From sequence record PP975109.1: a stretch of 43,567 bases of DNA, one strand, 5' to 3'. A model generated the notes under the pieces. The model had not been told where the DNA came from. It worked only from the letters and a program-made list of their open reading frames with translations, and did not search any database. Origin of the DNA: Escherichia phage IK_ECO1. Within the stretch, counting starts at the first letter, position 1; each line of letters begins with the position of its first letter. Of the stretch, positions 6,291 to 25,949 are shown piece by piece. The position numbers were made by a program, and so were the translations under genes.

Positions 6291-6293
6291 CAG

Positions 6294-6339: not shown

Positions 6340-9300
6340 ATGGCTCAGTTTCTGAACCGAGAACCGAATCCACAGGAAAAGGATTCTGCTAAGGGCGCAA
6401 CACTTAAACCTGCGCCTACAAGCGTAGATTGGAATGACGCAGGAGATGATGGGCTGAATGCCCTACAGCGTTCATCTATACTGGCCCAGGCTAAAACCCC
6501 TGCGACGTCAGCAGGGGAGAGCTTTGCTGCTGGGGTTGGTAACAGCATTATAGCTGCAGCCATTAGAAAGGCCTCCTCCCCAACATTCGTCCCAGAGCAG
6601 GGGTTTGATGCTAAGAAACAACTAAGCACCGACTCCCGAGCTAAGCTCTACACCCCTAATCAGGAAGAGATTGATTACTTGCACGGGGCGGTGTCCCTGG
6701 ATGATTATAATTATCGCATTCAGGCTATGCTAGAACAGCGTGACCGTGACCGTCAGATGTCTGATAACACGGTAGCCGGGTTCACCGGTGCACTGGCTGG
6801 TGATGCTCCGTTTATACTGGCTCCGATGTCAGCGGCGGGTATCGCTGGTCGTGCTGGCTTAGCAGTGCGTACTGCTATCCGCGCAGCGGATGTAGGTACA
6901 GCTGTCTATGCACAAGATCAATTGGGACAGTCTGCGGCAGTCACTGCTCTGGTAGCAGGGGTAGCTGGACTAGACCAGCTCTGGGACATGTCTAAGGCTG
7001 CTAAAGTAGCAGCAAAGGCACGCACTGGGCGTGAGCCTATGTTTGACCCGGACGCGCCCACAACTCGTACAGCAAGGGATGCTAATGTTACAGGAGTAGG
7101 AGAAGGGGACACAATACTCACTAAGGTACTGGATGAACCTATCCAAGTTCGCCGGAATAACACTGCTGCTGTTAACATGAAAGCGCAGGACGTAGTCCGT
7201 TTCCTCAAGACCTCTGAACACTTATCTAAAGGTCAGAAGGCTATCCTGGACACCCTGGGTGATGCAGTACAGGATATTGATTTTAAACTGGTGGCTGGTT
7301 CTTCTAACCGTAGCCACTATGGATTTTCACCAGCATCAACCACTGATAGGGGTTTTGTATCTTTACGTGCCCCTAAGAAAGCTAACGGAAGTACCTGGAC
7401 TACTGCTAGGGACGCTCTGCGTGCTATGGATGCGGACACTAGCCGAGTAGCAGTGCACGAGCTGATTCACGCGGCCACCACCAGAGCCATCAAGCAGAAT
7501 CCTGAAATTGCGAGTAAGCTGGAAGAGGTGCGCGCTGCAATAGCATCAGATTCAACTCTTAGTGATAAATTCAAGTATTATGCAAGCGATGTGCACGAGA
7601 TGCTGGCTGGACTGGGAGACAGCCCTGAGTGGGTAGAGTACCTCTCTAGGACTAAATCCCCTACTGGTAAGAGTATGCTTCGCCAGATTGGTGAGTATAT
7701 CATGAATGCGCTTGGGGTCCGTACCAAGGGCTCCGCGCTGGAGGATGTTCTGGACGCGTACGAGGACGCTGTCAAGTGGACCGCAAAGGACTACGCAGAC
7801 CAAGCTCAGGGCTTCCGGAGTGAGTCCTTCCAGGACTTGGCGGATACATCGGTTAAGCATGAGGCCTTGAAAGCTCAGGCTATGATGGACACTGCTAAGC
7901 GTAAGCTCGCCACTATGTTCTCCTTGTATGATAACATCGCAGAAGGTAGTGAGGACCTAGCACGCTTATTAGTATCTGATGCTACTGCTGTAGGAGGTCG
8001 TAAGCCGTCTGTGGTGGACTTCAAGCGTAATCTTACGTTGGAGATGGACGCTAGTGCCAGTGTAGTTGAGGATGCTATACTAGGTGCCCTCAAGGCCAAA
8101 GGTGTAGGTTTCACGGACCGCTTCTTCCATCGTAGCAACTTCCGAGCAGCTCGCGCGGACTTAGAAGACCGCTTAGGCCGTTACCTGGACTCTGCATACA
8201 GTGCTGAGGTTAATGGGCGTCCTGTACCTCTGCCGGACTCCGACTTGGTTCCGCTCGTTGAGGCGTATCGCAACTCTGGTTGGGCTAGTAAGTGGCACGA
8301 CCACATGACCGCTGCCGGTTTAGTGGATGACGGTACTCTGGTTAAATCGGACTACTACTTCCCACGCCAGTATAGCTACGATAAGATGCGCCAAGGTATT
8401 GCAAATGGTCGCTCCCTGGATAATTATCGGGATCTGTTCCGTCAGGCATTACGTGACGTGTATCCATCTATGGAACCTGAGGTCGTTCAACGTGTTGCTA
8501 AGGAGATGGTTGATGGTATCTACAACGGACGCTCCTCGGCCTCTGGTCCTATGTGGAAGCAACTCATCAATGGTATGGGTAATGATGAAGTGGTTATGGC
8601 CATGCGTAATGCTGGCGTAGACGAGAGTGCAATCCAGAGTTTCTTGGCAGGTAATGTCCGAGAATCTGGCGCTACCTCGCCTGCTCGGAACCTGCGTCAA
8701 CGTACCCGCTTCAACATGGATAAAGAGTACATCGTGGATGGTCAGGCTATGCGTATGCAGGACCTGATGGACACTGACGTAGCCAAGGTAATGCACGGTT
8801 ACACCAACCGCATGTCTGGTCGTGTAGGTATGGCCTATGCTGGTGTCTCTGACCTCAAGACTCTAGAGACGATGATTAACGAGTCCAAACACGCCCTAGC
8901 CGATTCGGGTAAGTGGGAGAAGACTGTTAATGATACCATTGACTTTATCCTGGGTGGGGCCCCGGCCGATGCCGGGCAGATGCCGGACCTGTTGCGTGCA
9001 GCGGGGAATATGGCTAACGCTACCATGCTCAAGAACTCTGGATTGTACCAGCTTACTGACACCGCTCTGGCTCTGAAAGAGTTCGGTATGTCCCGAGTAC
9101 TCCGCAGTATGCGTGAGCAGCCCTGGTTTAAAGAGGGTGCCGTAGCTATTCGTAATCCGGACATGGCTAGTCGCCTGGATACAATCCTACGTGGCAGTAT
9201 CCAGAAGGAGATGCGCTTCCGCTGGCTGAATACCTACGCAGACGATAACTTGGACCTGACCCGTCAGGCTTCCTGGTTTAACGTCACGCAGAACGTTGGG

Positions 9301-10038
9301 CAGGCCGCTAGGCATGTTAACGGTATGAGCATGGTGCACAGACTGCAGGTTAACTTGAACTCCGGGATTGTTGCTGATGAACTCAAGCAGATGTTCAAAG
9401 GTGATGCAGAGGCATTCAAACGCCTGGAGCGCTTCGGGCTTACCCGTGATGTTGCAGACCGTGCTATTGCTGCCAATAAGGCTAACCCTGGCGCTATGTT
9501 CCAGCCGGACCTGCAAATGCAAATTGAGGTGGTAGGTACCAGAATGATGGACTACCTGGTGCAGCAAGTACGTACCGGTGAGACCTCACACTTCGCACAG
9601 TTTAACCCTATTGGTAAAGTAATCGTCGGCTACCAGAGCTTTGCCCTGGCTGCCACCAACAAGATTCTCCGCCGAGAGTTGAACGACGCTGGGTGGATTG
9701 GGGTTGCGCACATTATGGCGTACCAGTTCCCGTTGATGCTGCTCGCTACTATGGCGAAGCATGGTATGGATGGCAAAGAGGTAGACACCCAGAAGCTTAT
9801 TGCTGAGTCAGTTATGGGTATGAGTGCCATCGGTGGTATCTCGCTTCTACAGGACATCTTCACTGGGGATTCCCCACGTCACTCGTTGGCGTCTATGGGT
9901 TACGTCACTGGGCTGCTGGGTGCCGTGCAAGCCCTGGCTACTGGGGATATGGATATCCAGACCTTCACTAAGCAGGTCCCGTTAATCCAGGAATTCGCAC
10001 CTACGCGAGCTATCATCAATAACTTCGGAGACGATTAA
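6340..10038 (+). CDS. Internal virion protein D / ejection protein (gp16-like), 1232 aa; contains an HELIH (HExxH) motif
   Basis: Largest ORF, RBS aggaga; position before tail fiber as in T7 gp16; HExxH at approx nt 7456-7470. Confidence 0.5.
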   Translation: MAQFLNREPNPQEKDSAKGATLKPAPTSVDWNDAGDDGLNALQRSSILAQAKTPATSAGESFAAGVGNSIIAAAIRKASSPTFVPEQGFDAKKQLSTDSRAKLYTPNQEEIDYLHGAVSLDDYNYRIQAMLEQRDRDRQMSDNTVAGFTGALAGDAPFILAPMSAAGIAGRAGLAVRTAIRAADVGTAVYAQDQLGQSAAVTALVAGVAGLDQLWDMSKAAKVAAKARTGREPMFDPDAPTTRTARDANVTGVGEGDTILTKVLDEPIQVRRNNTAAVNMKAQDVVRFLKTSEHLSKGQKAILDTLGDAVQDIDFKLVAGSSNRSHYGFSPASTTDRGFVSLRAPKKANGSTWTTARDALRAMDADTSRVAVHELIHAATTRAIKQNPEIASKLEEVRAAIASDSTLSDKFKYYASDVHEMLAGLGDSPEWVEYLSRTKSPTGKSMLRQIGEYIMNALGVRTKGSALEDVLDAYEDAVKWTAKDYADQAQGFRSESFQDLADTSVKHEALKAQAMMDTAKRKLATMFSLYDNIAEGSEDLARLLVSDATAVGGRKPSVVDFKRNLTLEMDASASVVEDAILGALKAKGVGFTDRFFHRSNFRAARADLEDRLGRYLDSAYSAEVNGRPVPLPDSDLVPLVEAYRNSGWASKWHDHMTAAGLVDDGTLVKSDYYFPRQYSYDKMRQGIANGRSLDNYRDLFRQALRDVYPSMEPEVVQRVAKEMVDGIYNGRSSASGPMWKQLINGMGNDEVVMAMRNAGVDESAIQSFLAGNVRESGATSPARNLRQRTRFNMDKEYIVDGQAMRMQDLMDTDVAKVMHGYTNRMSGRVGMAYAGVSDLKTLETMINESKHALADSGKWEKTVNDTIDFILGGAPADAGQMPDLLRAAGNMANATMLKNSGLYQLTDTALALKEFGMSRVLRSMREQPWFKEGAVAIRNPDMASRLDTILRGSIQKEMRFRWLNTYADDNLDLTRQASWFNVTQNVGQAARHVNGMSMVHRLQVNLNSGIVADELKQMFKGDAEAFKRLERFGLTRDVADRAIAANKANPGAMFQPDLQMQIEVVGTRMMDYLVQQVRTGETSHFAQFNPIGKVIVGYQSFALAATNKILRRELNDAGWIGVAHIMAYQFPLMLLATMAKHGMDGKEVDTQKLIAESVMGMSAIGGISLLQDIFTGDSPRHSLASMGYVTGLLGAVQALATGDMDIQTFTKQVPLIQEFAPTRAIINNFGDD
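7085..7102 (+). promoter_or_regulatory. Copy of the repeated motif atgttacaggagtaggag, inside the gp16-like gene; candidate phage RNAP promoter
   Basis: Exact 17-18 nt identity with copies at 18310 and 38994. Confidence 0.35.
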
Positions 10039-10039
10039 T

Positions 10040-11548
10040 ATGGCATACAGCTGGCAAGAGCAAATCAAGCCAGCTGGTACCCAGGATATCCAGTGTGATA
10101 TTGAGTATTTGGACAAGTCCTATATTCATGTATATCTCGACGGCGTCGAAACCACTGGGTACACCTGGACCAGCTCTACAAATATTAGGCTGAACACAGC
10201 CTTGACAGCGGATACGACGGTACTGCTCATTCGCAAGACCGAGCGCGAGTATCTGTACATTGAGTTTGCTAGTGGTTCCCCATTCATCGAGGTGAACGTA
10301 GACTCTCAAAACACCCAGTTCTTACACTTAGCTCAAGAGCTGGTGGAGGGTAGGGCCATCCCCGGATTCTACGGGGATATAAGCATGAACGGCTTCCGCA
10401 TCACCAACTTAGGTACTGGGGTTAATCCGGGGGATGCCGTTAACAAGGGACAGCTTGACGTGGTAGATGCACGTGTAACCAGTCTGGAAGAGACGTGGGT
10501 AACGGCTGCTACCAGCTATCCTTGGTACACTACTACCACCACTGAAACCGACGTACTGGACCCGCCCTTTAACTTCACTAAGGCTGCTCTGTACATCACT
10601 GGTGTGTGCCAGACCCCAGGCTATAGCTACGTGGTAGTAGATAATCAGATTATGCTAGCGGACCCTGTACCTGCGGGTACGCACATCTTTGCCCGCCTAG
10701 GTGAGGATGTAGGTCTAGACCCTAACTATGCCACCGCAGACCAGCTAGCTGCTGCTATCAGTCAAGCGCAGCTTGAGCATAACGCGCTACAGGCGGGTAT
10801 CGATGGCAAAGCAGCTAAGGGTGCTAACTCTGATATCACGAGCTTGAGCGGGCTTATAACGCCTCTCAGCACAACTCAGGGTGGTACAGGTAGTACTACT
10901 GGAGTAGCACCTAAAGCTACTGTTCTTGAAACCTCTCGTACAGTACAAGTAAACCTAGCAACCACCACCGCAGCCAGTTTCGATGGTTCCGCCAACATCT
11001 CTCCAGGTGTAACAGGTACGCTACCTGTAGTCAACGGAGGTACAGGTGGTACTACCCCAGCGGGCGCTCGTGGTAATCTAGGGGCTGCTGCTAGCGGTTC
11101 TAACTCGGATATTACCGCACTCACCTCGTTGAGCGGCGGTATTACTGGCCTGACTACAGGTACTGCGGCTGCTCCGGGTATCGTAGGACAGGAGCTGTCT
11201 GCGTCGTCTGGTACGGCTGTATCCTTAACTTCTGGGACCCTGACCAACGTAGCAAGCATCAGCCTACCTGCTGGGGATTGGGAGCTAGAGAGTGCGTTGC
11301 GTGTAACTAACGCAGGCAACATCACGCTCCTGAACTTTGGGGTCAGTGCTACCTCAGCCACCCTGCCTACAGATTGGTGGGACCGTTACAACATCACTAC
11401 AACGCTGGCAGCAGGTACTTCTACTCGTCAGGGTATGTCTCGCAGGGTTCTGCTCAGCGCGACTACTACACTGTACCTAGTAGCGCAGGCTACCTTCACC
11501 AGTACCTGTACAGCAGACGGTTATATCAGAGCACGGAGGGTGCGTTAA
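10040..11548 (+). CDS. Tail fiber protein with T7 gp17-like N-terminal adaptor domain, 502 aa
   Basis: N-terminal region (…RITNLGTGVNPGDAVNKGQLD…) resembles T7-type fiber anchor; internal repeat GANSDITSLSG / GSNSDITALTSLSG; position before terminase. Confidence 0.6.
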   Translation: MAYSWQEQIKPAGTQDIQCDIEYLDKSYIHVYLDGVETTGYTWTSSTNIRLNTALTADTTVLLIRKTEREYLYIEFASGSPFIEVNVDSQNTQFLHLAQELVEGRAIPGFYGDISMNGFRITNLGTGVNPGDAVNKGQLDVVDARVTSLEETWVTAATSYPWYTTTTTETDVLDPPFNFTKAALYITGVCQTPGYSYVVVDNQIMLADPVPAGTHIFARLGEDVGLDPNYATADQLAAAISQAQLEHNALQAGIDGKAAKGANSDITSLSGLITPLSTTQGGTGSTTGVAPKATVLETSRTVQVNLATTTAASFDGSANISPGVTGTLPVVNGGTGGTTPAGARGNLGAAASGSNSDITALTSLSGGITGLTTGTAAAPGIVGQELSASSGTAVSLTSGTLTNVASISLPAGDWELESALRVTNAGNITLLNFGVSATSATLPTDWWDRYNITTTLAAGTSTRQGMSRRVLLSATTTLYLVAQATFTSTCTADGYIRARRVR

Positions 11549-11850
11549 TGGCAAAGGCGGCAACCAAGAGCCGTCTCAGCGAACTTCACAGGATGTTTGC
11601 TGAGGCGCTGATTAGCGAACTCAAGCAGGCCGGGGAAGATGAGGTCCCTTTACCGGCTGCTGATAAATCTGTTATTGCCAAGTTCCTGAAAGACAATGAC
11701 ATTACCGCCGATGCAGATTCCGAGGAGATGCAGGAGCTACGTGATGAATTCGATGACGAACTAGCGGCGCGCAGAGAGGCGCGTAAGAAAGAGATTTTGA
11801 ACAAGATTAGTGGTTCAGACTCTGAGGACTTACTAGAAGGAATTGTCTAA
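11548..11850 (+). CDS. Putative terminase small subunit (DNA maturase A), 100 aa, acidic C-terminus
   Basis: ATG at 11548 overlapping fiber stop by 1 nt, RBS ggaggg; immediately upstream of terminase large subunit; the track ORF 11374-11850 is the same frame with an earlier spurious start. Confidence 0.45.
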   Translation: MAKAATKSRLSELHRMFAEALISELKQAGEDEVPLPAADKSVIAKFLKDNDITADADSEEMQELRDEFDDELAARREARKKEILNKISGSDSEDLLEGIV

Positions 11851-13706
11851 TGGTATCGGTGAAGACTGCGCGAAGACTGCGCATGCTCAACCAGAAACTT
11901 ACTGGTTATAGTGTGAACCCGCGCAGTATTCCCAAAGAGGAGCGCGAGGATATCGCCATGATGATGGCGGCTACCCTCAGTAATTTCAGGGAGTTCGCAT
12001 ACATCGGTATGCGTTTCCTAGGCTTTACGCTCACGGACATGCAAGCCGACATTGCAGAGTATATGCAGAAGGGTCCTAGAAAGCGTATGGTGGCTGCGCA
12101 GCGTGGTGAGGCTAAATCTACGCTAGCTGCATTATACGCTGTCTGGAGGCTCATCCAGGACCAATCCTGCCGTATACTGATTGTATCTGGTGCGGAGAAG
12201 CAGGCGTCCGACGTTGCGAACTTAATCATTCGTATGTTGGAAACCTGGCCGCTGTTGTGTTACTTGAAGGCTGACCCTACGCGCGGGGACCGTACTTCAT
12301 TCGAAGGTTATGATGTCAACTGCGACCTGAAACCACTGGATAAGTCTGCTAGCGTAGCCTGTGTAGGTATCACTGCATCACTGCAGGGTAAGCGTGCTGA
12401 CCTCTTGATTCCAGATGATATTGAGACTACTAAGAACGGTTTAACACAAACCCAGCGTGAGCAGTTGCTGATGATTTCGAAAGACTTCGCAGCTATCTGT
12501 ACACATGGGGATACACTGTACCTGGGTACACCGCAGACCAAGGACAGTATTTATAAAACCCTGCCGGGACGTGGCTTTGAAGTACGAGTATGGCCTGGAC
12601 GTATCCCGTCAGTTGAAATGGAAGAACGATATGGAAGTACACTTGCTCCTTATATACTGCAGCTCATTGAGCGGGGTTATAAACGTACCGGGTTCGGAGT
12701 AGACGGAACACTAGGTGAGAGCACAGACCCCGGTCGTTACGATGAGGATGCGCTGATTGAGAAGGAGCTGGACTTCGGTCCAGAGGGCTTCCAGCTGCAG
12801 TACATGCTCGATACAACCTTATCGGACCAGATGCGTACCCGTATCAAGTTGTCGGATATGCTTGTGTACTCCGGTAGCCTAGATTCCTCACCTGAGACCT
12901 TCTCCTATATTGCAGACCGTCGGTACTTGTACCAGCATGAGCATGAGGGGATTATGGGTCAGCAGATGTACTTCCCGGCATTCTACGGAGATATGCACTT
13001 GCCGTATCAGCACAAGGTGTTGGTAGTGGACCCAGCTGGTTGTGGTGGGGATGAAGTCTCCTATGCTGCGGGCGGGGCTGCTAACTCATACATTCATCTG
13101 TTCTCCGTTGGGGGCTTCCAAGGAGGTGTGAGCACCGAGAATATCGACAAGCTCATCGACCTGTGCGTAGAGTTAGACATCTCTGACATGGTGGTAGAGA
13201 GTAACATGGGGCACGGTACCGTGTCTATGCTTATTCTGAACCGCTTACGAGAGCGTCACCTTGCTGGTATTGGTGTGCGTGACATTAACAACACCACGCA
13301 GAAAGAACGTCGTATCATAGACACAATCAGTCCAGTAACTCGACGACACCGCCTAGTGGTGCATGAGCGTGCTATTCACGATGATATTGGGACTTGTATG
13401 CTATACTCCCGAGATCGTCGCTGGTTGTACTCTGCGTTCGCACAGCTCGCAGGTATTACGTATGACCGGGGTAGCTTGGCTAAGGATGACCGAGCAGACG
13501 CCATCGCTATGATGGTAGCAGTACTGAACGGGCATCTGGTAGAAGACGAGAAAGTGGTAGCTGCACGAGAGTCTGAGAAGCAGGCACTAGCATTCATCAA
13601 TAACCCGCTGGACTGGGCGCAGGGTATGGTCCAGAAACAGTTGCGGGGAGTCGCTGCACGGCTGCAAGGTCGGGGTAGAGGCAAACAACATAGAGGAAGA
13701 CGATAA
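11850..13706 (+). CDS. Terminase large subunit (DNA maturase B), 618 aa
   Basis: Size and position typical of T7 gp19; nuclease-like segment VLVVDPAGCGGDEVSYA; start overlaps upstream stop. Confidence 0.7.
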   Translation: MVSVKTARRLRMLNQKLTGYSVNPRSIPKEEREDIAMMMAATLSNFREFAYIGMRFLGFTLTDMQADIAEYMQKGPRKRMVAAQRGEAKSTLAALYAVWRLIQDQSCRILIVSGAEKQASDVANLIIRMLETWPLLCYLKADPTRGDRTSFEGYDVNCDLKPLDKSASVACVGITASLQGKRADLLIPDDIETTKNGLTQTQREQLLMISKDFAAICTHGDTLYLGTPQTKDSIYKTLPGRGFEVRVWPGRIPSVEMEERYGSTLAPYILQLIERGYKRTGFGVDGTLGESTDPGRYDEDALIEKELDFGPEGFQLQYMLDTTLSDQMRTRIKLSDMLVYSGSLDSSPETFSYIADRRYLYQHEHEGIMGQQMYFPAFYGDMHLPYQHKVLVVDPAGCGGDEVSYAAGGAANSYIHLFSVGGFQGGVSTENIDKLIDLCVELDISDMVVESNMGHGTVSMLILNRLRERHLAGIGVRDINNTTQKERRIIDTISPVTRRHRLVVHERAIHDDIGTCMLYSRDRRWLYSAFAQLAGITYDRGSLAKDDRADAIAMMVAVLNGHLVEDEKVVAARESEKQALAFINNPLDWAQGMVQKQLRGVAARLQGRGRGKQHRGRR

Positions 13707-14083
13707 TGGCATCAATCATCGCGGCTAAATCTGCGGAGGTCCAGTACACTATTGTGGGTAAGAGCCAGAACCTCGAGAAAGAGGTGGCCCCGGATTACAA
13801 TGCCGGGTTTGTGGGTACGGGTGCGCTGGATAAATTCAACACGTTCTTTACCTACATGGAGTCCCAAGGCTACTCGGCTACAGCTGTCGGGGAATCCTTT
13901 AAGGATGATGGCAACCTGCAGGCGCGACTGTTCTCCATGCTGTTCCAGCTTAGCAAGACCGGTTACGTAGCGCTCACTGGTACAGGTATGCCGCTAGGTG
14001 AGGGTTCTGGTACGGACTTCGACAACTCATTCACGGCCCTACAGTCGGCCTTCGTCGCAGCGACTAACGCTGCTGCAGCATAA
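13706..14083 (+). CDS. Hypothetical protein, 125 aa
   Basis: ORF start overlapping terminase stop; no recognisable motif. Confidence 0.4.
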   Translation: MASIIAAKSAEVQYTIVGKSQNLEKEVAPDYNAGFVGTGALDKFNTFFTYMESQGYSATAVGESFKDDGNLQARLFSMLFQLSKTGYVALTGTGMPLGEGSGTDFDNSFTALQSAFVAATNAAAA

Positions 14084-14096
14084 TAGGAGAATCACT

Positions 14097-14279
14097 ATGG
14101 CAATTGCTAAGGCAACACAAACACAGCAGCAGGAGCTGCTGCGTCAACTGAACATTCTGGGTAAGGACCTCTACGCAATCCTTACTCAGCCCCAGGATGT
14201 AGCTCAGACCGGTGCGGCGTTCGACGCTAAGATTGCTGCCCTAGAAGCAGCTATCACTGCTGTGAAGACGGCCAGCTAA
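14097..14279 (+). CDS. Hypothetical protein, 60 aa
   Basis: ATG at 14097 preceded by RBS taggaga; translationally coupled to next gene. Confidence 0.4.
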   Translation: MAIAKATQTQQQELLRQLNILGKDLYAILTQPQDVAQTGAAFDAKIAALEAAITAVKTAS

Positions 14280-14683
14280 TGCGTAAACTGGTCGCTGGGT
14301 TACTGCTCGTAGCTACTCTGACTGGTTGCTCAGCGACCTCTGCACTTACCGGCTTAGTTGGTTCTAAGCCGGAAGTATCTGCACAGGTTGGTGCTGAGAA
14401 TACCAAGCAGATGCTCGGGCTGAATAATAAGGTGGACTCCAGCACCACCAACAAGACTGATGTACAGGATTCTAACGTAGGTACACTGGATACTTCTAGC
14501 AAGAAGAAAGTGCAGACTATTAGCACCGGCACAATCCAAGCAGATCGCCTACAAGTGGTTAACAACGATAGTTACAGCCTTATCCTCGCCGGATTAGCAG
14601 GGGCCAGTATTCCTTTGGTCTTCCTAGTGACCATTCTGGTGATTCGTAAGCTGTTTAGGAAGAAGGGTCAGCAGGATGATTAA
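14279..14683 (+). CDS. Lipoprotein with C-terminal transmembrane helix, 134 aa; unimolecular-spanin-like architecture
   Basis: N-terminal signal peptide with lipobox LTGC (MRKLVAGLLLVATLTGCS), Ser/Thr/Lys-rich middle, C-terminal hydrophobic helix LILAGLAGASIPLVFLVTILVI followed by RKLFRKK; adjacent to holin and lysozyme. Confidence 0.55.
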   Translation: MRKLVAGLLLVATLTGCSATSALTGLVGSKPEVSAQVGAENTKQMLGLNNKVDSSTTNKTDVQDSNVGTLDTSSKKKVQTISTGTIQADRLQVVNNDSYSLILAGLAGASIPLVFLVTILVIRKLFRKKGQQDD

Positions 14684-14927
14684 AGTAGGAGACGTAGTTG
14701 GGGCAGACCTCGCTACCCGGGCAGGTGCAGCTGTTACTGGCGCTACAGTCTCAGGAGGCTGGTTGGCAGAGCTAATGAGTTGGAACTGGAGTGTTATCAG
14801 CTTCATCACTGCGACGGTGTGTGCAGTGCTAACCCTGGCGTGGAATGCGTACTATAAACGACGCACATACAAGCTCCTAGAAGAGCACGCACGTAAGGGG
14901 ACTATTAAATATGAGTTTAAGGACTAG
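14676..14927 (+). CDS. Putative holin (pinholin-like), 83 aa
   Basis: Weak Gly/Ala-rich hydrophobic segment followed by a clear TM helix (WSVISFITATVCAVLTLAW) and charged C-terminus; overlaps both neighbouring lysis genes. Confidence 0.5.
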   Translation: MIKVGDVVGADLATRAGAAVTGATVSGGWLAELMSWNWSVISFITATVCAVLTLAWNAYYKRRTYKLLEEHARKGTIKYEFKD

Positions 14928-15510
14928 GGTTATAGCTGCACTCGCCGGGGCTACTATGCTTGGCGGGGCTATTACTGAGGTAATCCAGCACAATGAGGGT
15001 TTGAGCCTTACAGCCTACAAAGACAGTGCCGGTATCCCTACGATCTGCTACGGGGAGACAAAGGGTGTCAAAATGGGCCAGAGAGCCACTCTGAGCGACT
15101 GTCAGAAGCAACTGATAGAATCAGCAGGGGAACATGCTAAGGCTCTTGACGGGCTTCCTATGCAGCTCTCTGACGTGGCTCTGATAGGGTCTGTAGACTT
15201 CATCTATAACGTAGGCGTAGCCGGCTTCAATGGCAGCGCCGTGAAACGGCACCTCAAAAACCTTGATTACGCAGCGGCTGGAAAGGCTGTGCTGGACTGG
15301 CGTTACATTAGCAAGTACCAGCAGAAGTCCCCAGGCACCGGTTGGGTGTACAAGGGTGGCAACCGCTGGACCTTTGATTGCTCTCAGTATATTAACGGGC
15401 AGCGTAATAAGGTGTGCTGGGGCCTCTGGGAGCGCCGTCAGTGGGAAGCCAAAGCTATTGGCAATGAGTTTAAATCCATGCAGGCAGCAGTAGCTGCTAT
15501 GCCTAAATAA
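14911..15510 (+). CDS. Endolysin, phage lysozyme (GH24, T4-lysozyme-like) with SAR-like N-terminus, 199 aa
   Basis: Catalytic pattern E-x8-D-x5-T in HNEGLSLTAYKDSAGIPTICYGET matches T4 lysozyme spacing; N-terminal weakly hydrophobic stretch VIAALAGATMLGGAIT. Confidence 0.7.
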   Translation: MSLRTRVIAALAGATMLGGAITEVIQHNEGLSLTAYKDSAGIPTICYGETKGVKMGQRATLSDCQKQLIESAGEHAKALDGLPMQLSDVALIGSVDFIYNVGVAGFNGSAVKRHLKNLDYAAAGKAVLDWRYISKYQQKSPGTGWVYKGGNRWTFDCSQYINGQRNKVCWGLWERRQWEAKAIGNEFKSMQAAVAAMPK

Positions 15511-15519
15511 GGAAATAGT

Positions 15520-17643
15520 ATGGCTCTCGTACGTAATATTACTGTCCCGAGTTATTACTCTGGACTTAACGTTGTTGACTACGGGGTAGTAGGCGACGGT
15601 ATCTCGGATGATACAGTAGCCTATACTCGAACTGTTGAAGCTGCTAATGCACTGCAACTGCCTGTATATGTACCTCCAGGTATGCGTGTCCGTATCACCG
15701 GTAGTTCTAACATTACACATAAGTACGGTTTTAACTTTAACGGCAGTACCTTGGATATTCAAGAGTATGCTGGTAAGTTCCTGTTCCAGCGCCAGGTAGC
15801 CCCTGTTCAATACTCTGCTGGTTCGCCACTTCTTACTGCTTTAGCAAGTACTACTTTAAGCGGAACTTATAACAGTGTTATGTCAGGCCGTACAGAACTG
15901 GATAACTGCTACGTAAATATAGTTACTAACCAGCCGTACTATACCTACCGTGGGGCTGTTACTACTCGTACTGAACGTTTAGCTGTAATCCGTAACGGTA
16001 TGCTTGAGGGCACTCTTAAATATCCGCTTGCAGGTTCTAGAATCACAGGCATCACTGCATACCCTCTTCCAGATAAGGAAGTAGTGTATGAGAACGTGGT
16101 GGTGGACGTAGGTGCTAATCAGCTGCAAGGTAACCCGTTCCTGATTGAGGCCGATAAGGTACGTTTAGAGAACTGGTCTTTTAAGCAATCTAACGTACTA
16201 TTTACCTCTGTAAATCCAGTATACGTAGTCATGCGTAACTGCTTCCATATGCGCGTACGCAACTTCCAGATGCAGTGGACTACTCGTACCGCTGCTAACA
16301 ACTTTACGTACGGCGTGGCTGCTGAGTACTGTTCAGATATCGAGTTTGACTCAATGAAAGGTGTAGGCGACGGTTGGGGCATGACCGGTTTCAACGAGAA
16401 TCGTCGCTGTACCTTCAGGAACTGTCAGCTTAGCCGAATAGATACGCACCAGCCTTTCATTGAATGGTTGCGTGTGCTGGACTGTGATACCGGTCAGTGG
16501 GGTATTAGTCTAACTGCCTTAGGTGATGTTATTGTTAAAGGTGGTAGCATTACCCTGACTAACGATAGCGTTTATACAGATAAGGTAGGCTTTATACTAT
16601 TGCGTAATGAGTGCGGCGGGGTACTGGATGGTCAGTTAGTAGTTGATGATGTTACCCTCAAGAACTACACCAGTACTACAACTCAAGCCTTAGTATATCA
16701 CCGTGGGGACTTAGCAGATGCCCCACCTTCAGGTTCCCCTGTTAACTTCCAATGCAGTAGCAGTATGCTCATCAAGAACCTGCGTTCAGATGGCCGCATC
16801 GTAGAGCTTGCCCCTACCATCAACGGTGCTTCAGGTATTAAGTACCCGGCCAGTATCGTAGTTCAGGACTGTATTGAAGGTATCTACAGCTTTGCTACTA
16901 ATATAAGTACCTTTACCCCGAACAGTACGATAACTACTCCAGTCGATAACGCCTTAGGTAGTATCTCGAATCTGAAGGTACAGTTACGTAGCTGCAATAT
17001 CCGCAGTAACGTCTCCCTGGTAGATACGTCCATCCCACAGAAATTTGTAGTGGATATGCTGCTTGATGGTGTATTCGGAAACGGTGCATTCAATCCGGGA
17101 CTACAGGTTAAGTTCGGAGGTACTGTCAGCTGTGTTAACTCTGTACTGGAAGGCTTGGACTTCTTCTCAGGGGCTGCACTGGACCGGTACTTGAAGGTGT
17201 CAGTAGTAGGTGGAGGTATTCGCCACACTGGACGTTTCCGTACTGTACCTGTGAACGGGGCTAATACCTTAGTCTCGGTTATTATCCAGGGAGCTGCATT
17301 GCAGAGCACTACGGCTGCTGCATTACGTTATTATATGGTGGCGCATCTGCAAGGTTGTACCTACAGCGTAGCCGGGTCTGCCAGTACCCCTACATTAACT
17401 GTCACCCCAGATGGTAGTACTAGTTACGATACTGGGGTAGTTGGTATTAACAGTAAGAACCTAATGCAACTTACAGCCAGTGTAAGTGGGGTACTTAGAA
17501 GGGTACCGTTCTTCCTGCCTGCTAGTGGTGGTAGTACTTACGTGCAGTTAGATAACGGTGTTTACGCTAACATAACCTACAGCGGAAGTACTGTAACTGT
17601 TTCTACCACAGCAGGTTTAGGCGGGATTACGTTGGTAGGCTGA
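15520..17643 (+). CDS. Tailspike / polysaccharide depolymerase, right-handed beta-helix (pectate-lyase-like), 707 aa
   Basis: N-terminal motif NVVDYGVVGDGISDDT typical of pectate lyase 3 / beta-helix tailspikes; last structural-type gene before the non-coding region; lacks T7 fiber anchor domain. Confidence 0.6.
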   Translation: MALVRNITVPSYYSGLNVVDYGVVGDGISDDTVAYTRTVEAANALQLPVYVPPGMRVRITGSSNITHKYGFNFNGSTLDIQEYAGKFLFQRQVAPVQYSAGSPLLTALASTTLSGTYNSVMSGRTELDNCYVNIVTNQPYYTYRGAVTTRTERLAVIRNGMLEGTLKYPLAGSRITGITAYPLPDKEVVYENVVVDVGANQLQGNPFLIEADKVRLENWSFKQSNVLFTSVNPVYVVMRNCFHMRVRNFQMQWTTRTAANNFTYGVAAEYCSDIEFDSMKGVGDGWGMTGFNENRRCTFRNCQLSRIDTHQPFIEWLRVLDCDTGQWGISLTALGDVIVKGGSITLTNDSVYTDKVGFILLRNECGGVLDGQLVVDDVTLKNYTSTTTQALVYHRGDLADAPPSGSPVNFQCSSSMLIKNLRSDGRIVELAPTINGASGIKYPASIVVQDCIEGIYSFATNISTFTPNSTITTPVDNALGSISNLKVQLRSCNIRSNVSLVDTSIPQKFVVDMLLDGVFGNGAFNPGLQVKFGGTVSCVNSVLEGLDFFSGAALDRYLKVSVVGGGIRHTGRFRTVPVNGANTLVSVIIQGAALQSTTAAALRYYMVAHLQGCTYSVAGSASTPTLTVTPDGSTSYDTGVVGINSKNLMQLTASVSGVLRRVPFFLPASGGSTYVQLDNGVYANITYSGSTVTVSTTAGLGGITLVG

Positions 17644-18781: not shown

Positions 18782-18810
18782 TTGACACCGCGAAGAACAT
18801 AAGCTAGATT
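18782..18810 (+). promoter_or_regulatory. Candidate host sigma70 early promoter: TTGACA - 17 nt - TAGATT
   Basis: Perfect -35 hexamer, 17-nt spacer, -10 with TAnnnT; upstream of early genes on the coding strand. Confidence 0.45.
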
Positions 18811-21138: not shown

Positions 21139-21483
21139 ATGCTTACAGTAGACGAAACAGCGCTACTGTGTTGGCGCTTGCTAGAGACGCAGGGCAAGTG
21201 CGGTTGCAGTTGGGAAACATTCAAAGAGGTCCCTAATGAACTCAAAGGAATCGTACCAGTTGAGCGTCGATTACTCCACGTTAGAAAAGAAGGTGTTGGC
21301 ACTGTACTCAAAACCTATCGAGAGTACACTGAATCAGCCGCGCGGAGACTTCAGGAGCATATCTCATTTAATGTGGTTGCGGCGCTACGGCAGTATGGAT
21401 ATAGGGGAGCTTATACGCAATTTAGAGCAGCAGTGCGCGCCTATTACAAGCAGCGACAGCTCTCTGCGTGGTATGCACGCTGA
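21139..21483 (+). CDS. Early hypothetical protein, 114 aa
   Basis: ATG 21139 with RBS aagga, directly after upstream stop; track ORF 21049-21483 same frame with earlier start. Confidence 0.45.
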   Translation: MLTVDETALLCWRLLETQGKCGCSWETFKEVPNELKGIVPVERRLLHVRKEGVGTVLKTYREYTESAARRLQEHISFNVVAALRQYGYRGAYTQFRAAVRAYYKQRQLSAWYAR

Positions 21484-21529
21484 ACTTTTAATTCATGATG
21501 AAATAGCATTAACACTGGAGACAAAGAAA

Positions 21530-23251
21530 ATGCAAACGACTCGCGAGATGCAAGAAACTAGCAAAGCAGTTGCAGACATCAATGTGCCTGAATACGAGAA
21601 TTGGACCATCAAATTTCCAGAAGGGGTCAACGCTCTTCCACTGAAGGAACAGATGTACTCTTCCGGGGATTACTGGTGCCAACTTCCCTACCTATCAACT
21701 CAAGGCCATGCGCGCGTGCAAAGTAACAAAACCCGTGCGCTTTTGTATGGCTTTTATATGTTGTCAAAGGTGCTGCCGGGGTATGTTGTAGCACTCGGCA
21801 ACTTCACAGCTGCAGGAGAGGACTTGGGTGGGTGTGTTGGGCCGCTGGGCACGATTGATCTTAGTGACACTCTCCTGTATAAGCTCTTTGACTGTGCAGG
21901 TACCTACGACCAAGCATTCAGTTTATCTAGCAGAACCTTCTATGATGGCCCTGACGTAGTTACAGAACGCGTAGTAGAGGCGGTCCAATACTTTACCGGA
22001 TACAAGGTGCACAAGCAGGCTATCGAGCTGTTCGAAGAGATTATGCTAGCACCTACTTACTCCCTTCGGGCCAAATACACTCGCGGCTTGTACGGTGAGC
22101 GTGATGGTAATTACTGGGCAGCAACCTTGCTTATGCAGTTGCACGGATTTGTAGTATCTAGATTTGCAATCCCACTAGGTTTCGGCTTCCGCAACGGTGA
22201 GCCTGTAGTAATGCTGGGGCAGCCGCGACTGCACAAAGATTATGCTGCAATTACAGAGTATCGCTGTGTAGAGATGCGCGTAGGTAAGTGGCTCGCTAAC
22301 TATTACGGCAGTGGTGTAGACTTCCGGGAATGTATTGAAGACCTCAAAGCTATGAACGTGGAGCCTACTACATATCTTTGTAAGACCGAGCGGGAGTGGT
22401 ACTACGCATACGAGAACGGCCCTCGTAGCTGCATGACTGGATACGACTTCGAGGCTAGTCCGGTGCGTGTATATGCCACGACTAGTCACGGCTTGCCGGA
22501 CAATAATCTGCGCCTGTTCATCCAGTATACTGGTGAACTTTTTGGCGACGACTTTAAAGTGCATGCCCGTGCTATCGTTAACATTGAAACCAATGAATAT
22601 GTCCGTGCATACGGGGATGCTGCAGATGCCATCCTGCGTGCTAATGGGTATGCGAACGATACAGACTGCTTAGATGGTGCAATGCTGGCGCGTATCCCAC
22701 ACCCAGAGCATGATGGTGCCGTGCTTATGCCGTACTTGGATGGGAGCCAAGACGGGGTGGATGCCGAAGGGGATAGTGCATTCGTCATCTGTTATTGCTA
22801 TGACTACGAAGCACAAGACGCTGACGGGTACATTTGGATTGATGATGGTCGCAGTGCTTGTGTAGAGTGCGGGGAGCGATTCGACGAAGAGGACATGTTC
22901 GAGACTTCTGGTGGAGCTTATGTGTGCCCGCACTGTATTGGTGATACTTACGTACAGGTAGTAGGGCGCTCGGTGGTATATCCGTCATGGGATTGTTCAT
23001 GGTCCGACTACCACGATTGTTGGGTATATGACTTTGACGTAGCAGATTGTGCTGTAGAGGGTACAGTGCACGACCGAGAGCCGATGCAGTGTGCGCAAGG
23101 GTACGATGTTCTTAGCATCCACACCGAAGCACACCCAGTGCACGGCATAATCCTCACGGAGTACGCTGCGTCAGTGCTGGATGAGCCTTACCTCGGCAAC
23201 GAGGAAGCTAAAGAAGACAAAGAAGCTAACGCGGAACAGGAGGCAGCTTAA
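21530..23251 (+). CDS. Large early protein of unknown function, about 573 aa, Cys-rich zinc-ribbon-like C-terminal region and acidic tail
   Basis: ATG 21530 with RBS ggaga 9 nt upstream; track ORF 21236-23251 has an earlier in-frame start overlapping the previous gene; CxxC…CxxC (CVECGERF…CPHCIG) near C-terminus. Confidence 0.5.
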   Translation: MQTTREMQETSKAVADINVPEYENWTIKFPEGVNALPLKEQMYSSGDYWCQLPYLSTQGHARVQSNKTRALLYGFYMLSKVLPGYVVALGNFTAAGEDLGGCVGPLGTIDLSDTLLYKLFDCAGTYDQAFSLSSRTFYDGPDVVTERVVEAVQYFTGYKVHKQAIELFEEIMLAPTYSLRAKYTRGLYGERDGNYWAATLLMQLHGFVVSRFAIPLGFGFRNGEPVVMLGQPRLHKDYAAITEYRCVEMRVGKWLANYYGSGVDFRECIEDLKAMNVEPTTYLCKTEREWYYAYENGPRSCMTGYDFEASPVRVYATTSHGLPDNNLRLFIQYTGELFGDDFKVHARAIVNIETNEYVRAYGDAADAILRANGYANDTDCLDGAMLARIPHPEHDGAVLMPYLDGSQDGVDAEGDSAFVICYCYDYEAQDADGYIWIDDGRSACVECGERFDEEDMFETSGGAYVCPHCIGDTYVQVVGRSVVYPSWDCSWSDYHDCWVYDFDVADCAVEGTVHDREPMQCAQGYDVLSIHTEAHPVHGIILTEYAASVLDEPYLGNEEAKEDKEANAEQEAA

Positions 23252-24285
23252 TGTATGGTGTTGACCTTAAACTACTGACAAAGATACTAACAACGCACCG
23301 ACCTAGCTGGGGTAGTACCAAATGGTTTGAGCCTCTTCTTAGTGGTGCCCTTGCCAATGCAGAGCACTATGTAAGGGATGCGCACGGTAACTACTTTGTA
23401 CTAATTGGTAACTCTGAACAGAGCGACGTAGCGTTTACATCACACCTCGATACAGTGGCCCGGCCCGGTAGCGCTGCGCCGGACATTGCAATTACTAACA
23501 AGGGCGTAATGTTCCTGCGGAATCCACAGGTTGCGGACTGTCTCGGGGCAGACTGTGGTGCCGGTATCTACCTGATGCTGGAGATGATTAAGCGCGGTGT
23601 GCATGGACGTTACTGCTTCTTCGTGGATGAGGAAGTAGGTTGTGAGGGCAGCAGAGCATCAGCCAAGGACGATACTGGCTTCTGGACTGGGGTCAAGGCA
23701 ATGATTAGCTTTGACCGCCGGGGTGATGGTATCATCACGCATCAACGATACCAGCGTTGCTGTTCTGATACGTTCGCAAAAGAACTCGCGGCCCGGCTAG
23801 GGCGCACGGAAGCGCACTTACAGAAAGGAGTGTACACTGACTCTGCCGAGTTCATAAGTATTATCCCAGAGTGCACTAACGTAGGCGTAGGGTACATGCA
23901 TGAGCATACACCAGACGAGGTGTTGGACTTGAATATACTCGGACAAGTACTTGAGCGCGTACTACAAGCGGGTACGTTCAAGCACCTACCGATTGAGCGG
24001 GATCCTAAGGTAGTGGAGCCGGATGCGTGGTTGTCCGCCTCAGCGTACCCTTTTGTCACAGCGCTGGATATTCCCCCTGCAGAGGATCCGCATTTACTAG
24101 CAGCATTCAAGGAGGTGTCACAGCTTTCTAAGCAGCAACTGATTGGTTGGGTGTTGGATAACCCGGCAAGAGCGGCAGAGTACATCATGGTGTATTCTGA
24201 CTATGGATTTAAAGATGAGCTGATTGAACTAGGTACCCGAGTTGTAGAGGACTGGGGTGGGTATGATAATATTGTGGAGGGTTGA
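23251..24285 (+). CDS. Putative Zn-metallopeptidase-like protein (M20/M28/M42-type motif order), 344 aa
   Basis: Motif order H-x-D (SHLDTV), GADCGAG, DEEVGCEG, later HEH, as in aminopeptidase-type metal sites; read by eye, not searched. Confidence 0.35.
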   Translation: MYGVDLKLLTKILTTHRPSWGSTKWFEPLLSGALANAEHYVRDAHGNYFVLIGNSEQSDVAFTSHLDTVARPGSAAPDIAITNKGVMFLRNPQVADCLGADCGAGIYLMLEMIKRGVHGRYCFFVDEEVGCEGSRASAKDDTGFWTGVKAMISFDRRGDGIITHQRYQRCCSDTFAKELAARLGRTEAHLQKGVYTDSAEFISIIPECTNVGVGYMHEHTPDEVLDLNILGQVLERVLQAGTFKHLPIERDPKVVEPDAWLSASAYPFVTALDIPPAEDPHLLAAFKEVSQLSKQQLIGWVLDNPARAAEYIMVYSDYGFKDELIELGTRVVEDWGGYDNIVEG

Positions 24286-24287
24286 TT

Positions 24288-24746
24288 ATGTCTAAGTTTA
24301 AAGTTGGTGATAAGGTTGTACGCAAACATTATAAAGATGATGAGATATTTAAAAGCAGACAAGGGGATTGTATTTACTACACAATTACTGATATGTCCGA
24401 ACATGGCTACTGGCTGCAGTTGAATAACTTTTCCTACGATGGTGATCGCGTGCCGTGGTCTGCTGCCAACTTCGAGCTATATCAAGAGCCGGACGACGAG
24501 CTGCCACCGGTTCCGGACAGCGTCTACTATCCGGATATGTACACACTGTTAACGGGGTTACGTGCATGTGAAGGTACATCCGGGTTAACTGTGCGGAAAT
24601 CTCCATATACCTCGGGGGCTTTAAGCCTATCTATTGATGATAGTAAATGGACACGATTAGATGCGGATGCAGCCCTGCAGTTAGCGCATGACCTACGCCG
24701 CATGGCTATGGAGATTCGGAGGAAGGAGAAAGCTAGTGAAGTATGA
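24288..24746 (+). CDS. Hypothetical protein, 152 aa, N-terminal FKVGDKV barrel-like motif
   Basis: ATG 24288 with RBS ggaggg; N-terminus similar to the protein at 27422. Confidence 0.45.
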   Translation: MSKFKVGDKVVRKHYKDDEIFKSRQGDCIYYTITDMSEHGYWLQLNNFSYDGDRVPWSAANFELYQEPDDELPPVPDSVYYPDMYTLLTGLRACEGTSGLTVRKSPYTSGALSLSIDDSKWTRLDADAALQLAHDLRRMAMEIRRKEKASEV

Positions 24747-25197
24747 GTATAACCCGGATACCGGCGAGATACTCCGTTACGGAAAACCCGTGGGGTCTAA
24801 GGACTCCTCTGGGTATTTGGTGGTATGGGTAGATGGCAAGTGCTGGAGAGCACACCGTCTTGCTTACCATTTGCAAGGCCTGCCTGTACCCAAACAAGTG
24901 GACCACATAAACGGCATCCGAGACGATAACAGGTGGATTAATCTGCGAGCAGCCACTAACTCGCAGAACCAATACAATAGAAAACCCTGCTCTTCCTCAG
25001 GGAATTTGAAGGGTGCTTATTACAATAAAGCAATGCGTAGTTGGTATTCTTTAATCAGGGTAAATGGTAAACGTAAGTATCTAGGTTCCTTTACTTCTGA
25101 GGAAGCAGCTCACGCTGCCTATGTGGAAGCGGCACAGCAACTACATGAGGGTTTTGATATATGGACGAGCCGTGGCTTAGAGCCTGCAAGCGCCTAG
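24736..25197 (+). CDS. HNH homing endonuclease with AP2-type DNA-binding domain
   Basis: HRLAYH…VDHINGIRDDNRWINL…SQNQ (HNH) followed by GAYYNKAMRSWYSLIRVNGKRKYLGSFTSEEAAHAAY (AP2-like); GTG 24736 likely start, or ATG 24688. Confidence 0.7.
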   Translation: MKYEYNPDTGEILRYGKPVGSKDSSGYLVVWVDGKCWRAHRLAYHLQGLPVPKQVDHINGIRDDNRWINLRAATNSQNQYNRKPCSSSGNLKGAYYNKAMRSWYSLIRVNGKRKYLGSFTSEEAAHAAYVEAAQQLHEGFDIWTSRGLEPASA

Positions 25198-25949
25198 CTA
25201 TAGGGCAGTCCAGCAGGTTCAGGTGCTGCGGGAGCACTCCCGCGGCGATAATCTACAACAAGCAAGACGCCTGGAGTATGTACTGTTTCCGGTGTCACAA
25301 AACAGTTAATGAGCGCAAGCAGTATCAGCGCATACAGTTACAGGAAGAGCCGAGGGTGCAGCCCTCTGCACCTGCAGATGCAATTTGCATTAGCCAAGCG
25401 ACTGCAGAAACACAGAGTTTTATTTACGGATTCCTTGCTTCAAAAGGAATCATGCCTGAAATGGTGGAGGATGCAGAATGGAGCAACGAGAAACAGCGGA
25501 TACTATTCCGTGTCGGGGGTGCTGTACTGGGTCGTGCTGTTCATGCCCGACAGCAACCGAAGTGGGTAATGTACGGCCAGCCAATACCGTTCGCTGCCGT
25601 GGGACCTGCCGTAGCACCGGATGTAGCTGCGGCCGCACCTCTAAAGGTCGTGCTCACCGAGGACTTACTCTCAGCCCGGAAGATACAGCACGCAGTTACG
25701 AGCTACAGTGCGTTGAACGTGCAGGCTATAGCTATGCTGGGTACACGCTTGCCCACGCCGCTAAGGGCCTGGCTGATTCAGAATCGCCCGGAAGCGATTC
25801 TGATGCTAGACAATGACCCGGCAGGGCACGCTGGGGTAGCGGCGGCGCGCAAAGCACTGCGCCCGTTCATGCAGTGCCGAGAACACTACTTCGCTGCGGA
25901 CCCTAAGGACGCAGAAATCAAGGAGATACTGGAGGCTTTGGATGTTTAA
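25161..25949 (+). CDS. DNA primase (zinc-binding N-terminus plus TOPRIM), 262 aa
   Basis: Cys cluster CCGS…CFRCH; TOPRIM-like LTEDLLSA and LMLDNDPAGHAG motifs; precedes helicase. Confidence 0.6.
   Translation: MDEPWLRACKRLAIGQSSRFRCCGSTPAAIIYNKQDAWSMYCFRCHKTVNERKQYQRIQLQEEPRVQPSAPADAICISQATAETQSFIYGFLASKGIMPEMVEDAEWSNEKQRILFRVGGAVLGRAVHARQQPKWVMYGQPIPFAAVGPAVAPDVAAAAPLKVVLTEDLLSARKIQHAVTSYSALNVQAIAMLGTRLPTPLRAWLIQNRPEAILMLDNDPAGHAGVAAARKALRPFMQCREHYFAADPKDAEIKEILEALDV

Follow-up and report, generated by a model that had tools for sequence, protein, structure and literature searches.

The closest described relatives of the gene analyzed here are found in KP34-like podophages. In a comparison of five Kp34-like phages, KP34p10 was a core hypothetical protein encoded beside a "putative peptidase" (PMC4411677), and phiM1-like Pectobacterium phages carry a hypothetical gene and a peptidase gene in the same arrangement (PMC6115819). 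The sources on KP34p10 (KP34 gp10; KP-KP34p10) give no function, domain analysis, peptidase link, or wider distribution. Here, a gene of the same family (PHROG 6980, E = 0) in Escherichia phage IK_ECO1 was examined; the whole stretch of DNA that was analyzed (sequence record PP975109.1, 43,567 nucleotides [nt]) is referred to below as the window. The gene was already catalogued (PHROG 6980, KP34p10), yet its function is unexplained; the breadth of its family and its pairing with a peptidase gene are added here. The target gene almost always directly precedes a zinc peptidase gene in phages, plasmids, and prophages, and profile searches place its product in a superfamily of about 1000 clusters (50% identity) rather than among orphans. 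The two genes lie in the window as follows.

21530..23251, + strand: target gene, 573 amino acids (aa) plus stop; PHROG 6980 member of an undescribed superfamily
23251..24285, + strand: partner gene, predicted MH-clan (M28/M20/M42-like) di-zinc peptidase, 344 aa; PF04389, PHROG 4191 "peptidase"

A DNA search for the target gene matched 249 phage records, in which the gene is intact and, where annotated, called hypothetical; a protein search matched 423 clusters at 90% identity. In PHROGs, the protein falls in PHROG 6980 and matches PHROG 13313 more weakly, both of unknown function. Distant relatives were collected with a profile of 24 homologs (79% mean column identity), which was searched against 1.84 billion cluster representatives (clusters at 50% identity) and matched 1003 of them at E <= 1e-3 and 219 at E <= 1e-10. 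Family members range from 430 to 800 aa; beyond close relatives, the common part comprises profile positions ~240 to 520, which gives a core of aa ~205 to 520. The initial annotation, made by reading the DNA and its translations, had reported no recognizable domain, and this was borne out: the target protein had no match above threshold in Pfam, NCBIfam, or PADLOC (two weak NCBIfam zinc-ribbon matches were far below cutoff), and searches of Protein Data Bank (PDB) sequences with the single protein and with a 143-sequence profile returned zinc-finger noise only. Searches with 50 family members against Pfam at E <= 5 and NCBIfam at E <= 0.1 gave only chance-level zinc-finger matches, and PADLOC had no match for the peptidase or for the gene upstream of the target. 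The names of 10 distant clusters and of 97 homologs of the plasmid protein are hypothetical throughout. Two alternatives flagged at the outset, homology to a characterized housekeeping protein and pseudogene status in relatives, were checked, and neither was found.

Conservation was scored across 129 distant representatives, in window numbering.

C301 and D404: 100% conserved
S300, M302, R347, and Y361: 99% conserved
Y315, Y402, G373, and G433: 98% conserved
Y294, L369, and P401: 95% conserved
G252: 91% conserved
G297 and R359: 88% conserved
C444, C447, C466, and C469: 96 to 99% conserved

The window protein carries each of these residues, and conservation is highest in the core rather than in the zinc-ribbon-type motif of the last four cysteines. 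The C-terminal part is rich in Cys and His, as the initial annotation had noted (10 Cys and 8 His in the last third, versus 3 Cys and 2 His in the first third and 5 Cys and 4 His in the middle one). Of the clusters that it singled out, the CVEC (444-447) and CPHC (466-469) pairs are kept widely and are invariant in the close family, whereas DCSWSDYHDCW is kept only at C489, with C497 changed to Ser or Ala in relatives.

The partner peptidase and its linkage to the target gene were then characterized. The peptidase matched PF04389 Peptidase_M28 (23.3 bits, cutoff 21.3), and a profile of six peptidase homologs matched PepT-like tripeptidases (4.8e-9) and the TET1 aminopeptidase (1.8e-5) among PDB sequences. 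Residues H65, D67, D101, E127, E128, D155, and H219 are invariant among the six homologs, which share 35 to 54% identity; with residue roles assigned from the known clan pattern (H, D, bridging D, EE, D/E, H), the set of di-zinc ligands and catalytic Glu is apparently intact. The peptidase ATG shares one base with the target TAA (TAATG), and the two genes form a conserved pair whose stop and start often overlap, an arrangement that suggests coupled translation. In two unrelated metagenomic phage contigs, the peptidase directly follows a target homolog, although the targets are only 22 to 30% identical to that of the window and the peptidases 38 to 43% (E 6e-48 and 6e-50). The same target-then-peptidase order is present in Vibrio phage VP93, Pectobacterium phage PP90, and Cronobacter phage Peggy.

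The pairing was also counted in distant loci that were collected through the peptidase alignment alone, with core genes counted as stop-to-stop frames. In 25 of 45 distant viral loci, a core gene lies within about 100 nt upstream of the peptidase on the same strand, and in 3 more, the core open frame overlaps the peptidase frame by ~270 nt. Another 8 loci have a core gene elsewhere within 5 kilobases (kb); in 4 of these, a shorter, core-only protein is encoded just downstream, and in the other 4, the core gene is farther off or on the opposite strand. Among 69 further loci, 66 of them from bacterial genomes, the core gene is immediately upstream of the peptidase in 44, and many of the remaining 25 are contigs cut at the peptidase. 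A Pfam search of long peptidase open reading frames (ORFs) for fused domains found none.

Some loci depart from this arrangement. In four contigs of 130 to 480 kb, presumably large phages (L057 6336-7601, L069 6292-7257, L084 6316-7269, and L092 6301-7260), a protein of 320 to 420 aa encoded about 200 nt downstream of the peptidase lacks a zinc ribbon and matches only the central part of the core, from SCM to YVRxYG. In similar large contigs (e.g., L061), PhoH occupies that position. Another group of large viral contigs (L063 3951-7187) has the peptidase without a core-family neighbor; there, the peptidase is preceded by a PF05618 "Zn_protease" (RimB-like) gene and followed by a weak, sub-threshold match to a 2H phosphoesterase domain. 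In the window peptidase itself, aa 101 to 107 (23551-23571) read GADCGAG, versus GADD(G/A)AG in five distant homologs, a Cys replacing the second Asp by the putative bridging ligand.

Only mobile elements carry the pair, in many cases amid early or establishment genes, and its sites comprise unrelated phages, a prophage, plasmids, and regions resembling integrative and conjugative elements (ICE-like regions). In phage contigs L005, L007, and L098, the target is surrounded by small early ORFs, the nearest DNA-metabolism gene (ligase or dCTP deaminase) being several kb downstream, and in other phage contigs, the pair is beside KilA-N, pRha, and NinX genes. In a Pasteurella prophage, the target is inside the replication module, downstream of DNA polymerase A and a VapE-like primase-helicase and between a PD-(D/E)XK nuclease and an SNF2 helicase. 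On an 82-kb contig (L096), the pair is flanked by ArdC (6 kb away) and a large ParB_N protein and, on the other side, by an orphan N6 methylase; on Limnohabitans plasmid pTEGF4, its surroundings include genes for an N6 methylase and a relaxase. In a group of related sphingomonad loci, about a dozen in number, it adjoins Toprim/DUF7146 and ParB-like genes. Methylobacterium indicum plasmid pVL1_2 (L095 5185-12539) carries three target paralogs and one peptidase in a row; genes for an "ATP-binding protein" and a radical SAM protein lie upstream of them.

ArdC is among the genes of plasmid leading regions, where ParB-like and Toprim-primase genes are found too. Orphan DNA methylases, anti-restriction genes, and single-stranded DNA-binding protein genes are typical of these regions, and anti-defense genes cluster there (PMC11541004). 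The target family is not mentioned in that study, and literature searches on anti-defense gave nothing on it. The host-interaction or anti-defense function that the initial annotation had raised remains a candidate, with circumstantial support from the neighbors on plasmids, in ICE-like regions, and in phage early regions.

To gain further insight into the protein, a structure model was built from 143 diverse sequences, replacing one from 24 close homologs that was unusable (predicted local distance difference test [pLDDT] score of 41). The new model has a mean pLDDT of 84 and a predicted template modeling score of 0.69, with aa 290 to 560 mostly above 93. It comprises, in order, an N-terminal domain (15-81), a poorly predicted linker, a helical segment (141-209), and a stretch (aa 214-295) of three long strands followed by helices, a strand, and a helix. 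The C-terminal half consists of a beta-rich part (327-436), the CxxC...CxxC ribbon, hairpins (474-542), and a helical acidic tail. The parts of the protein map to the window as follows.

21572..21772, + strand: small N-terminal domain, aa 15-81, in close relatives only (profile positions 1-190); pLDDT 83-91 over aa 20-70
21950..22429, + strand: helical segment and predicted beta-beta-beta-alpha-beta-alpha lobe, aa 141-300, holding G252 (RxGKxL) and Y294-x-x-G297
22427..22435, + strand: S300-C301-M302 motif (S 99%, C 100%, M 99% in the 129 distant relatives)
22436..22837, + strand: beta-rich second half of the core, aa 303-436; model pLDDT above 93
22847..22945, + strand: zinc-ribbon-type motif, C444-x-x-C447 ... 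C466-x-x-C469, 96-99% conserved
22949..23164, + strand: beta-hairpin run, aa 474-545; model strands 474-542, pLDDT 95-97
23183..23248, + strand: acidic C-terminal tail, ending Ala-Ala, from the sequence

The lobe at aa 141 to 300 is the proposed site of a GNAT-like part. The second half of the core (aa 303-436) carries the conserved motifs PVRxY(315), AR(347)AIVN, YVR(359)xY(361)G, G373-Y374, and MPY(402)LD(404)G. The ribbon has the pattern of a four-Cys, two-knuckle zinc ribbon, in which two CxxC pairs are about 15 to 25 residues apart, with short model strands around the Cys residues; zinc-ribbon family models scored below threshold (TIGR02605, 16.1 bits, cutoff 31.3; Zn_ribbon_8, 14.8 bits, cutoff 34.4). 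In the hairpin run, C489, C507, H531, and H535 are conserved in the close family.

Foldseek, one of the checks that the initial annotation had proposed, gave no match to the PDB (best E 0.26). Against BFVD, the model matched uncharacterized phage proteins only (from Klebsiella, Shigella phage Buco, Vibrio, Pectobacterium, Pseudomonas, Caulobacter, and uncultured phages). Shorter and weaker BFVD matches (111 to 154 aligned columns) to LIM-type, metallothionein-type, and "amidoligase" phage proteins are taken to reflect the zinc and hairpin part. Several candidate relationships were rejected. A PcfJ-like (PF14284) relation had no Pfam match and a Foldseek BFVD probability of 0.06 to 0.10, and an internal duplication of the two core lobes had an hhalign probability of 2.4%. 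RNA polymerase-like DxDGD, protein tyrosine phosphatase-like CX5R, ADP-ribosyltransferase R-S-E, and Cys-His-Asp triads were dropped by eye, the required residues or spacings not being conserved.

The C terminus of the protein was also compared across the family. The acidic tail reported in the initial annotation, EPYLGNEEAKEDKEANAEQEAA, contains 8 acidic and 2 basic residues, and the window protein ends ...QEAA. Among the 129 distant representatives, 66 end in -AA (often LAA, IAA, or VAA) and 85 in -A; among control ORFs taken from comparable loci, -AA ends 13 of 217 (binomial p ~2e-45). The residues preceding -AA do not align among distant relatives. The ending is GA or AA in 23 of the 44 further loci where the two genes are adjacent (41 of these 44 come from bacterial genomes); sphingomonad relatives end in -Gly-Ala. 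In Drulisvirus, the nucleotide sequence of the last target codons does not vary, since the ribosome-binding site and start of the peptidase gene lie within them. In contigs L005 (IAA) and L007 (LAA), the ribosome-binding site comes after the stop, and the ending is therefore independent of it.

The tail may be a turnover handle for ClpXP or a docking end for the partner peptidase. ClpX C-motif 1 degrons end in ...LAA-COOH, and RseA and LexA fragments end in VAA. Like the ssrA tag and C-motif 1 degrons, the target ends in Ala-Ala-COOH after an unstructured or helical tail; unlike them, the window protein has a Glu at position -3 (EAA) and no nonpolar residue there, although many target relatives do have L, I, or V at -3.

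A reading of these results that we favor, tentatively and with somewhat less than even confidence, is that the target is an uncharacterized enzyme that acts with the peptidase on one substrate early after DNA entry, in establishment or counter-defense. The target would be the first protein of a two-gene module of mobile elements and the second would be an M28/M20/M42-clan di-zinc exopeptidase or deacylase. The core of the target would comprise a GNAT acyl-transferase-like lobe followed by a beta-rich lobe and would carry C301, D404, R347, and several Tyr residues, while the zinc ribbon and hairpin run probably hold the substrate or a partner. Both proteins would be made together early after DNA entry and would act in sequence on one host or defense-related substrate, one transferring or removing an acyl or aminoacyl group and the other trimming a terminal residue, with the outcome that the incoming element is helped to establish. 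A bolder version, which we hold to be doubtful, is that the pair is a new two-enzyme counter-defense or establishment module common to phage early regions and plasmid leading regions. In that version, the target would be a Cys-dependent transferase or hydrolase with a new, only distantly GNAT-like fold that modifies a component of host immunity or proteolysis. Its product, or termini needed by host systems, would be trimmed by the di-zinc exopeptidase, and the enzyme would limit its own activity by means of the -Ala-Ala or -Gly-Ala end, either by way of ClpXP or because that end plugs the partner peptidase.

Several observations weigh against the favored reading. The term enzyme derives from the pattern of conservation, because no family model or solved structure gave a significant match, and the core has no conserved His, Glu, or Lys, which is unusual for Cys-based catalysis. 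Among the Pfam matches of 50 members, no acetyltransferase appeared in the 4 families at E <= 0.01 or in the 25 of 39 families listed at E <= 5; NCBIfam acetyltransferase models matched one of the 50 members, at a chance-level E of 0.066. The GNAT motif A (Q/R-x-x-G-x-G/A), which binds the CoA pyrophosphate at the beta4-alpha3 junction, is replaced in the family by [KR]-x-G-[KR]-[YFW]-L, with a single Gly (G252, 91%), and the GNAT likeness is for this reason a resemblance of one part and not a family assignment. KP34 DNA is cut by six restriction enzymes (PMC3082699), so bulk DNA modification is an unlikely role, and a DNA hypermodification enzyme, considered as a candidate, was set aside on this ground. 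The -AA ending depends on lineage (5 of 29 in a marine viral sample), and since the last codons in Drulisvirus double as the ribosome-binding site and start of the peptidase gene, amino acid selection is inseparable there. The anti-defense neighborhood is guilt by association, suggestive but drawn in large part from one related sphingomonad group, and no experimental work on the family was found in the literature.

Some of the same evidence bears on other explanations. An accessory factor for DNA replication or processing, with the ribbon and hairpin domain binding DNA or a replisome protein, is conceivable, though we consider it a minority possibility. The gene is directly upstream of primase, helicase, and polymerase genes in the window, VP93, PP90, and Peggy; the Pasteurella prophage site between nuclease and SNF2 helicase is in a replication module; sphingomonad neighbors include Toprim/DUF7146 primase-like and ParB-like genes; and primases and other DNA-binding proteins often contain four-Cys ribbons. 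A near-constant peptidase partner without an obvious replication role argues against such a factor, however, as do the lack of a nucleoside triphosphatase, nuclease, or polymerase motif and, in L005, L007, and L098, a distance of several kb from the nearest DNA-metabolism gene. That conservation peaks in the core, not the ribbon, also speaks against it, and the same core bears on whether the protein is instead a noncatalytic binder or decoy that blocks a host protein, the core being only a scaffold. Many phage early proteins are stoichiometric inhibitors, and the protein could act as a hard-to-unfold, ssrA-like-tailed ClpXP substrate or, through its acidic tail, as a nucleic acid mimic; the acidic -AA tail behind a very confidently modeled zinc and hairpin domain would suit this, as would the lack of a conserved catalytic His, Glu, or Lys. 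We nonetheless judge a decoy unlikely. Across about 1000 divergent clusters, one Cys and one Asp never vary and one Arg hardly does, a pattern more in keeping with a catalytic or ligand site than with a scaffold, and the regular presence of an enzyme gene next to it points to a pathway. Inhibitors encoded by phages are often of small size and evolve fast, unlike a protein of 430 to 800 aa with a deeply conserved core.

The identity of the partner raises a metabolic or salvage role, in which the pair would process peptides or acylated amino acids for phage growth without a specific host target, the peptidase finishing proteolysis products and the target modifying or activating them. By sequence, the nearest enzymes to the partner are PepT-like tripeptidases and TET aminopeptidases, whose substrates are short peptides, and in large marine phage contigs, the peptidase is near PhoH and other auxiliary-type genes. 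Sites beside ArdC, ParB, and methylase genes on plasmids and in ICE-like regions do not suit phage nutrition, however, a 43-kb podophage has little room for general metabolism, and the zinc-ribbon and hairpin domain suggests a macromolecular target; we regard this role as quite improbable. A virion or injected structural protein is more remote still and can be nearly discounted: the label "putative structural protein" on the homolog in one Vibrio phage record (H82) carries no evidence, the gene belongs to the early region and is distant from the structural genes (1-17643), the family is also present on plasmids and in prophage replication modules, and the structural genes in the KP34 paper do not include the protein (PMC3082699).

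The start of the target gene was also examined; its frame extends upstream of 21530, into an upstream gene.

21139..21483, + strand: upstream 114-aa gene, PHROG 6167

The target ORF is open from 21185 to its end at 23251, and its first in-frame ATG, at 21236, would give 671 aa; the start at 21530 gives 573 aa, coincides in alignment with the family-wide start (MQET...), and has a GGAG 9 nt upstream. In 8 Drulisvirus relatives, the variable columns of the overlap (21236-21483) number 33, 27, and 64 at codon positions 1, 2, and 3 in the frame of gene 21139-21483, and amino acid identity is 0.80 in the upstream-gene frame versus 0.57 in the extension frame; it is the upstream-gene frame, and not the extension, that is under protein-level selection there. 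The start at 21530 is preferred because of the family start alignment, the GGAG, and the codon-position pattern in the overlap, and the 671-aa start at 21236 was rejected. Many public gene calls (659 to 673 aa) take the long start, which is about 95 codons too long and overlaps the upstream gene.

The extension frame (21236-21529) stays open in 8 of 8 Drulisvirus relatives, with a conserved ATG preceded 6 nt upstream by AGAGG. Codon shuffles of the upstream gene left the extension frame free of stops in only 0.1 to 1% of trials; the real sequences have 1 or 2 stops in this frame, upstream of the long open stretch. The extension could be a long isoform or a coincidence. The window also has an 18-nt insertion directly after the start codon (21530-21553), unlike all relatives, which gives MQTTRE-MQET and a second in-frame ATG at 21548. 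The PHROG 6167 gene accompanies the target-peptidase pair in Drulisvirus, Cronobacter phage Peggy, Pectobacterium PP90, and Vibrio VP93. In podophages, the module may include it as a third gene. The Peggy record leaves it unannotated, and the start annotated there for the target homolog lies within it.

The genome that makes up the window is circularly permuted and belongs to a KP34-like podophage. Its genes all run on the + strand, the structural ones at 1-17643 and those for early functions and replication from about 19000. The DNA of the gene region is 89% identical to that of Escherichia phage ZH5 and 86 to 88% identical to those of Minorna, KPV811, and others, and the nearest phages belong to the genus Drulisvirus (subfamily Slopekvirinae, family Autographiviridae). 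The initial annotation was right that the ORF is genuine, large, and located in the early region upstream of the replication module (it comes directly before primase, helicase, and DNA polymerase genes), but its term "T7-type" does not hold in the narrow sense for this phiKMV/KP34-type Drulisvirus. It had not mentioned the partner peptidase, the extent of the family, or the enzyme-like core (aa ~205-436). The top sigma-70-like promoter match of the early region lies at 18782-18810 (TTGACA, 17 nt, TAGATT; 10/12), in a scan that as a whole was not above chance. An ORF with HNH_3 and AP2 domains of the homing-endonuclease type (24688-25197) lies between a hypothetical gene (24282-24746) and the primase gene (25161-25949) and overlaps both; it is probably a mobile insertion, because phage Minorna has a 68-aa ORF in its place.

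About 1000 clusters in phages, plasmids, and prophages lack a database domain name, and no paper on the core was found in the literature. The partnership with a peptidase and the location among first-needed genes are patterns that led others to anti-defense genes. Were the pair to counter a host system, the anti-defense field would gain a new enzyme family and a new fold, and differences in host range among the Klebsiella and Escherichia coli Drulisvirus phages under development for therapy might find an explanation. If it is a replication helper or a salvage enzyme instead, it would still be a core gene of several podophage genera and deserve a name.

Among known systems, GNAT enzymes, including the double-GNAT proteins FemA/FemX and MshD, have a core fold of beta1-alpha1-alpha2-beta2-beta3-beta4-alpha3-beta5-alpha4-beta6. 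The target may resemble them in the order of some of its modeled elements (putatively GNAT beta2-4, alpha3, beta5, and alpha4): three long antiparallel strands, a helix starting at a conserved Gly (RxGKxL), a strand, and a helix ending in Tyr-x-x-Gly. It differs from them in having neither the Q/R-x-x-G-x-G/A signature nor a Pfam or NCBIfam acetyltransferase match, in that its invariant Cys and Asp are outside the GNAT-like lobe, and in its size, which is 3 to 4 times that of a typical GNAT protein and includes a zinc ribbon and hairpin domain. ArgA and ArgE are a pair of acyl-transferase and MH-clan deacylase, and such pairs serve biosynthesis and self-protection. The likeness of the target pair to them, a GNAT-like protein coencoded with an M20/M28-type di-zinc hydrolase, is a functional analogy only, in which a group would be added and later this group or a neighboring residue removed; ArgA/ArgE-type pairs are chromosomal metabolic genes with known small-molecule substrates, whereas the target pair is confined to mobile elements. 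ArdC anti-restriction proteins, which combine a single-stranded DNA-binding domain with a metallopeptidase, share with the target pair a mobile-element origin, a peptidase component, and action early after DNA entry, the last being proposed for the target. ArdC has no sequence or fold relation to the target pair; its metallopeptidase has a zincin-type fold, and it is a single polypeptide, whereas the target is accompanied by a separate MH-clan exopeptidase.

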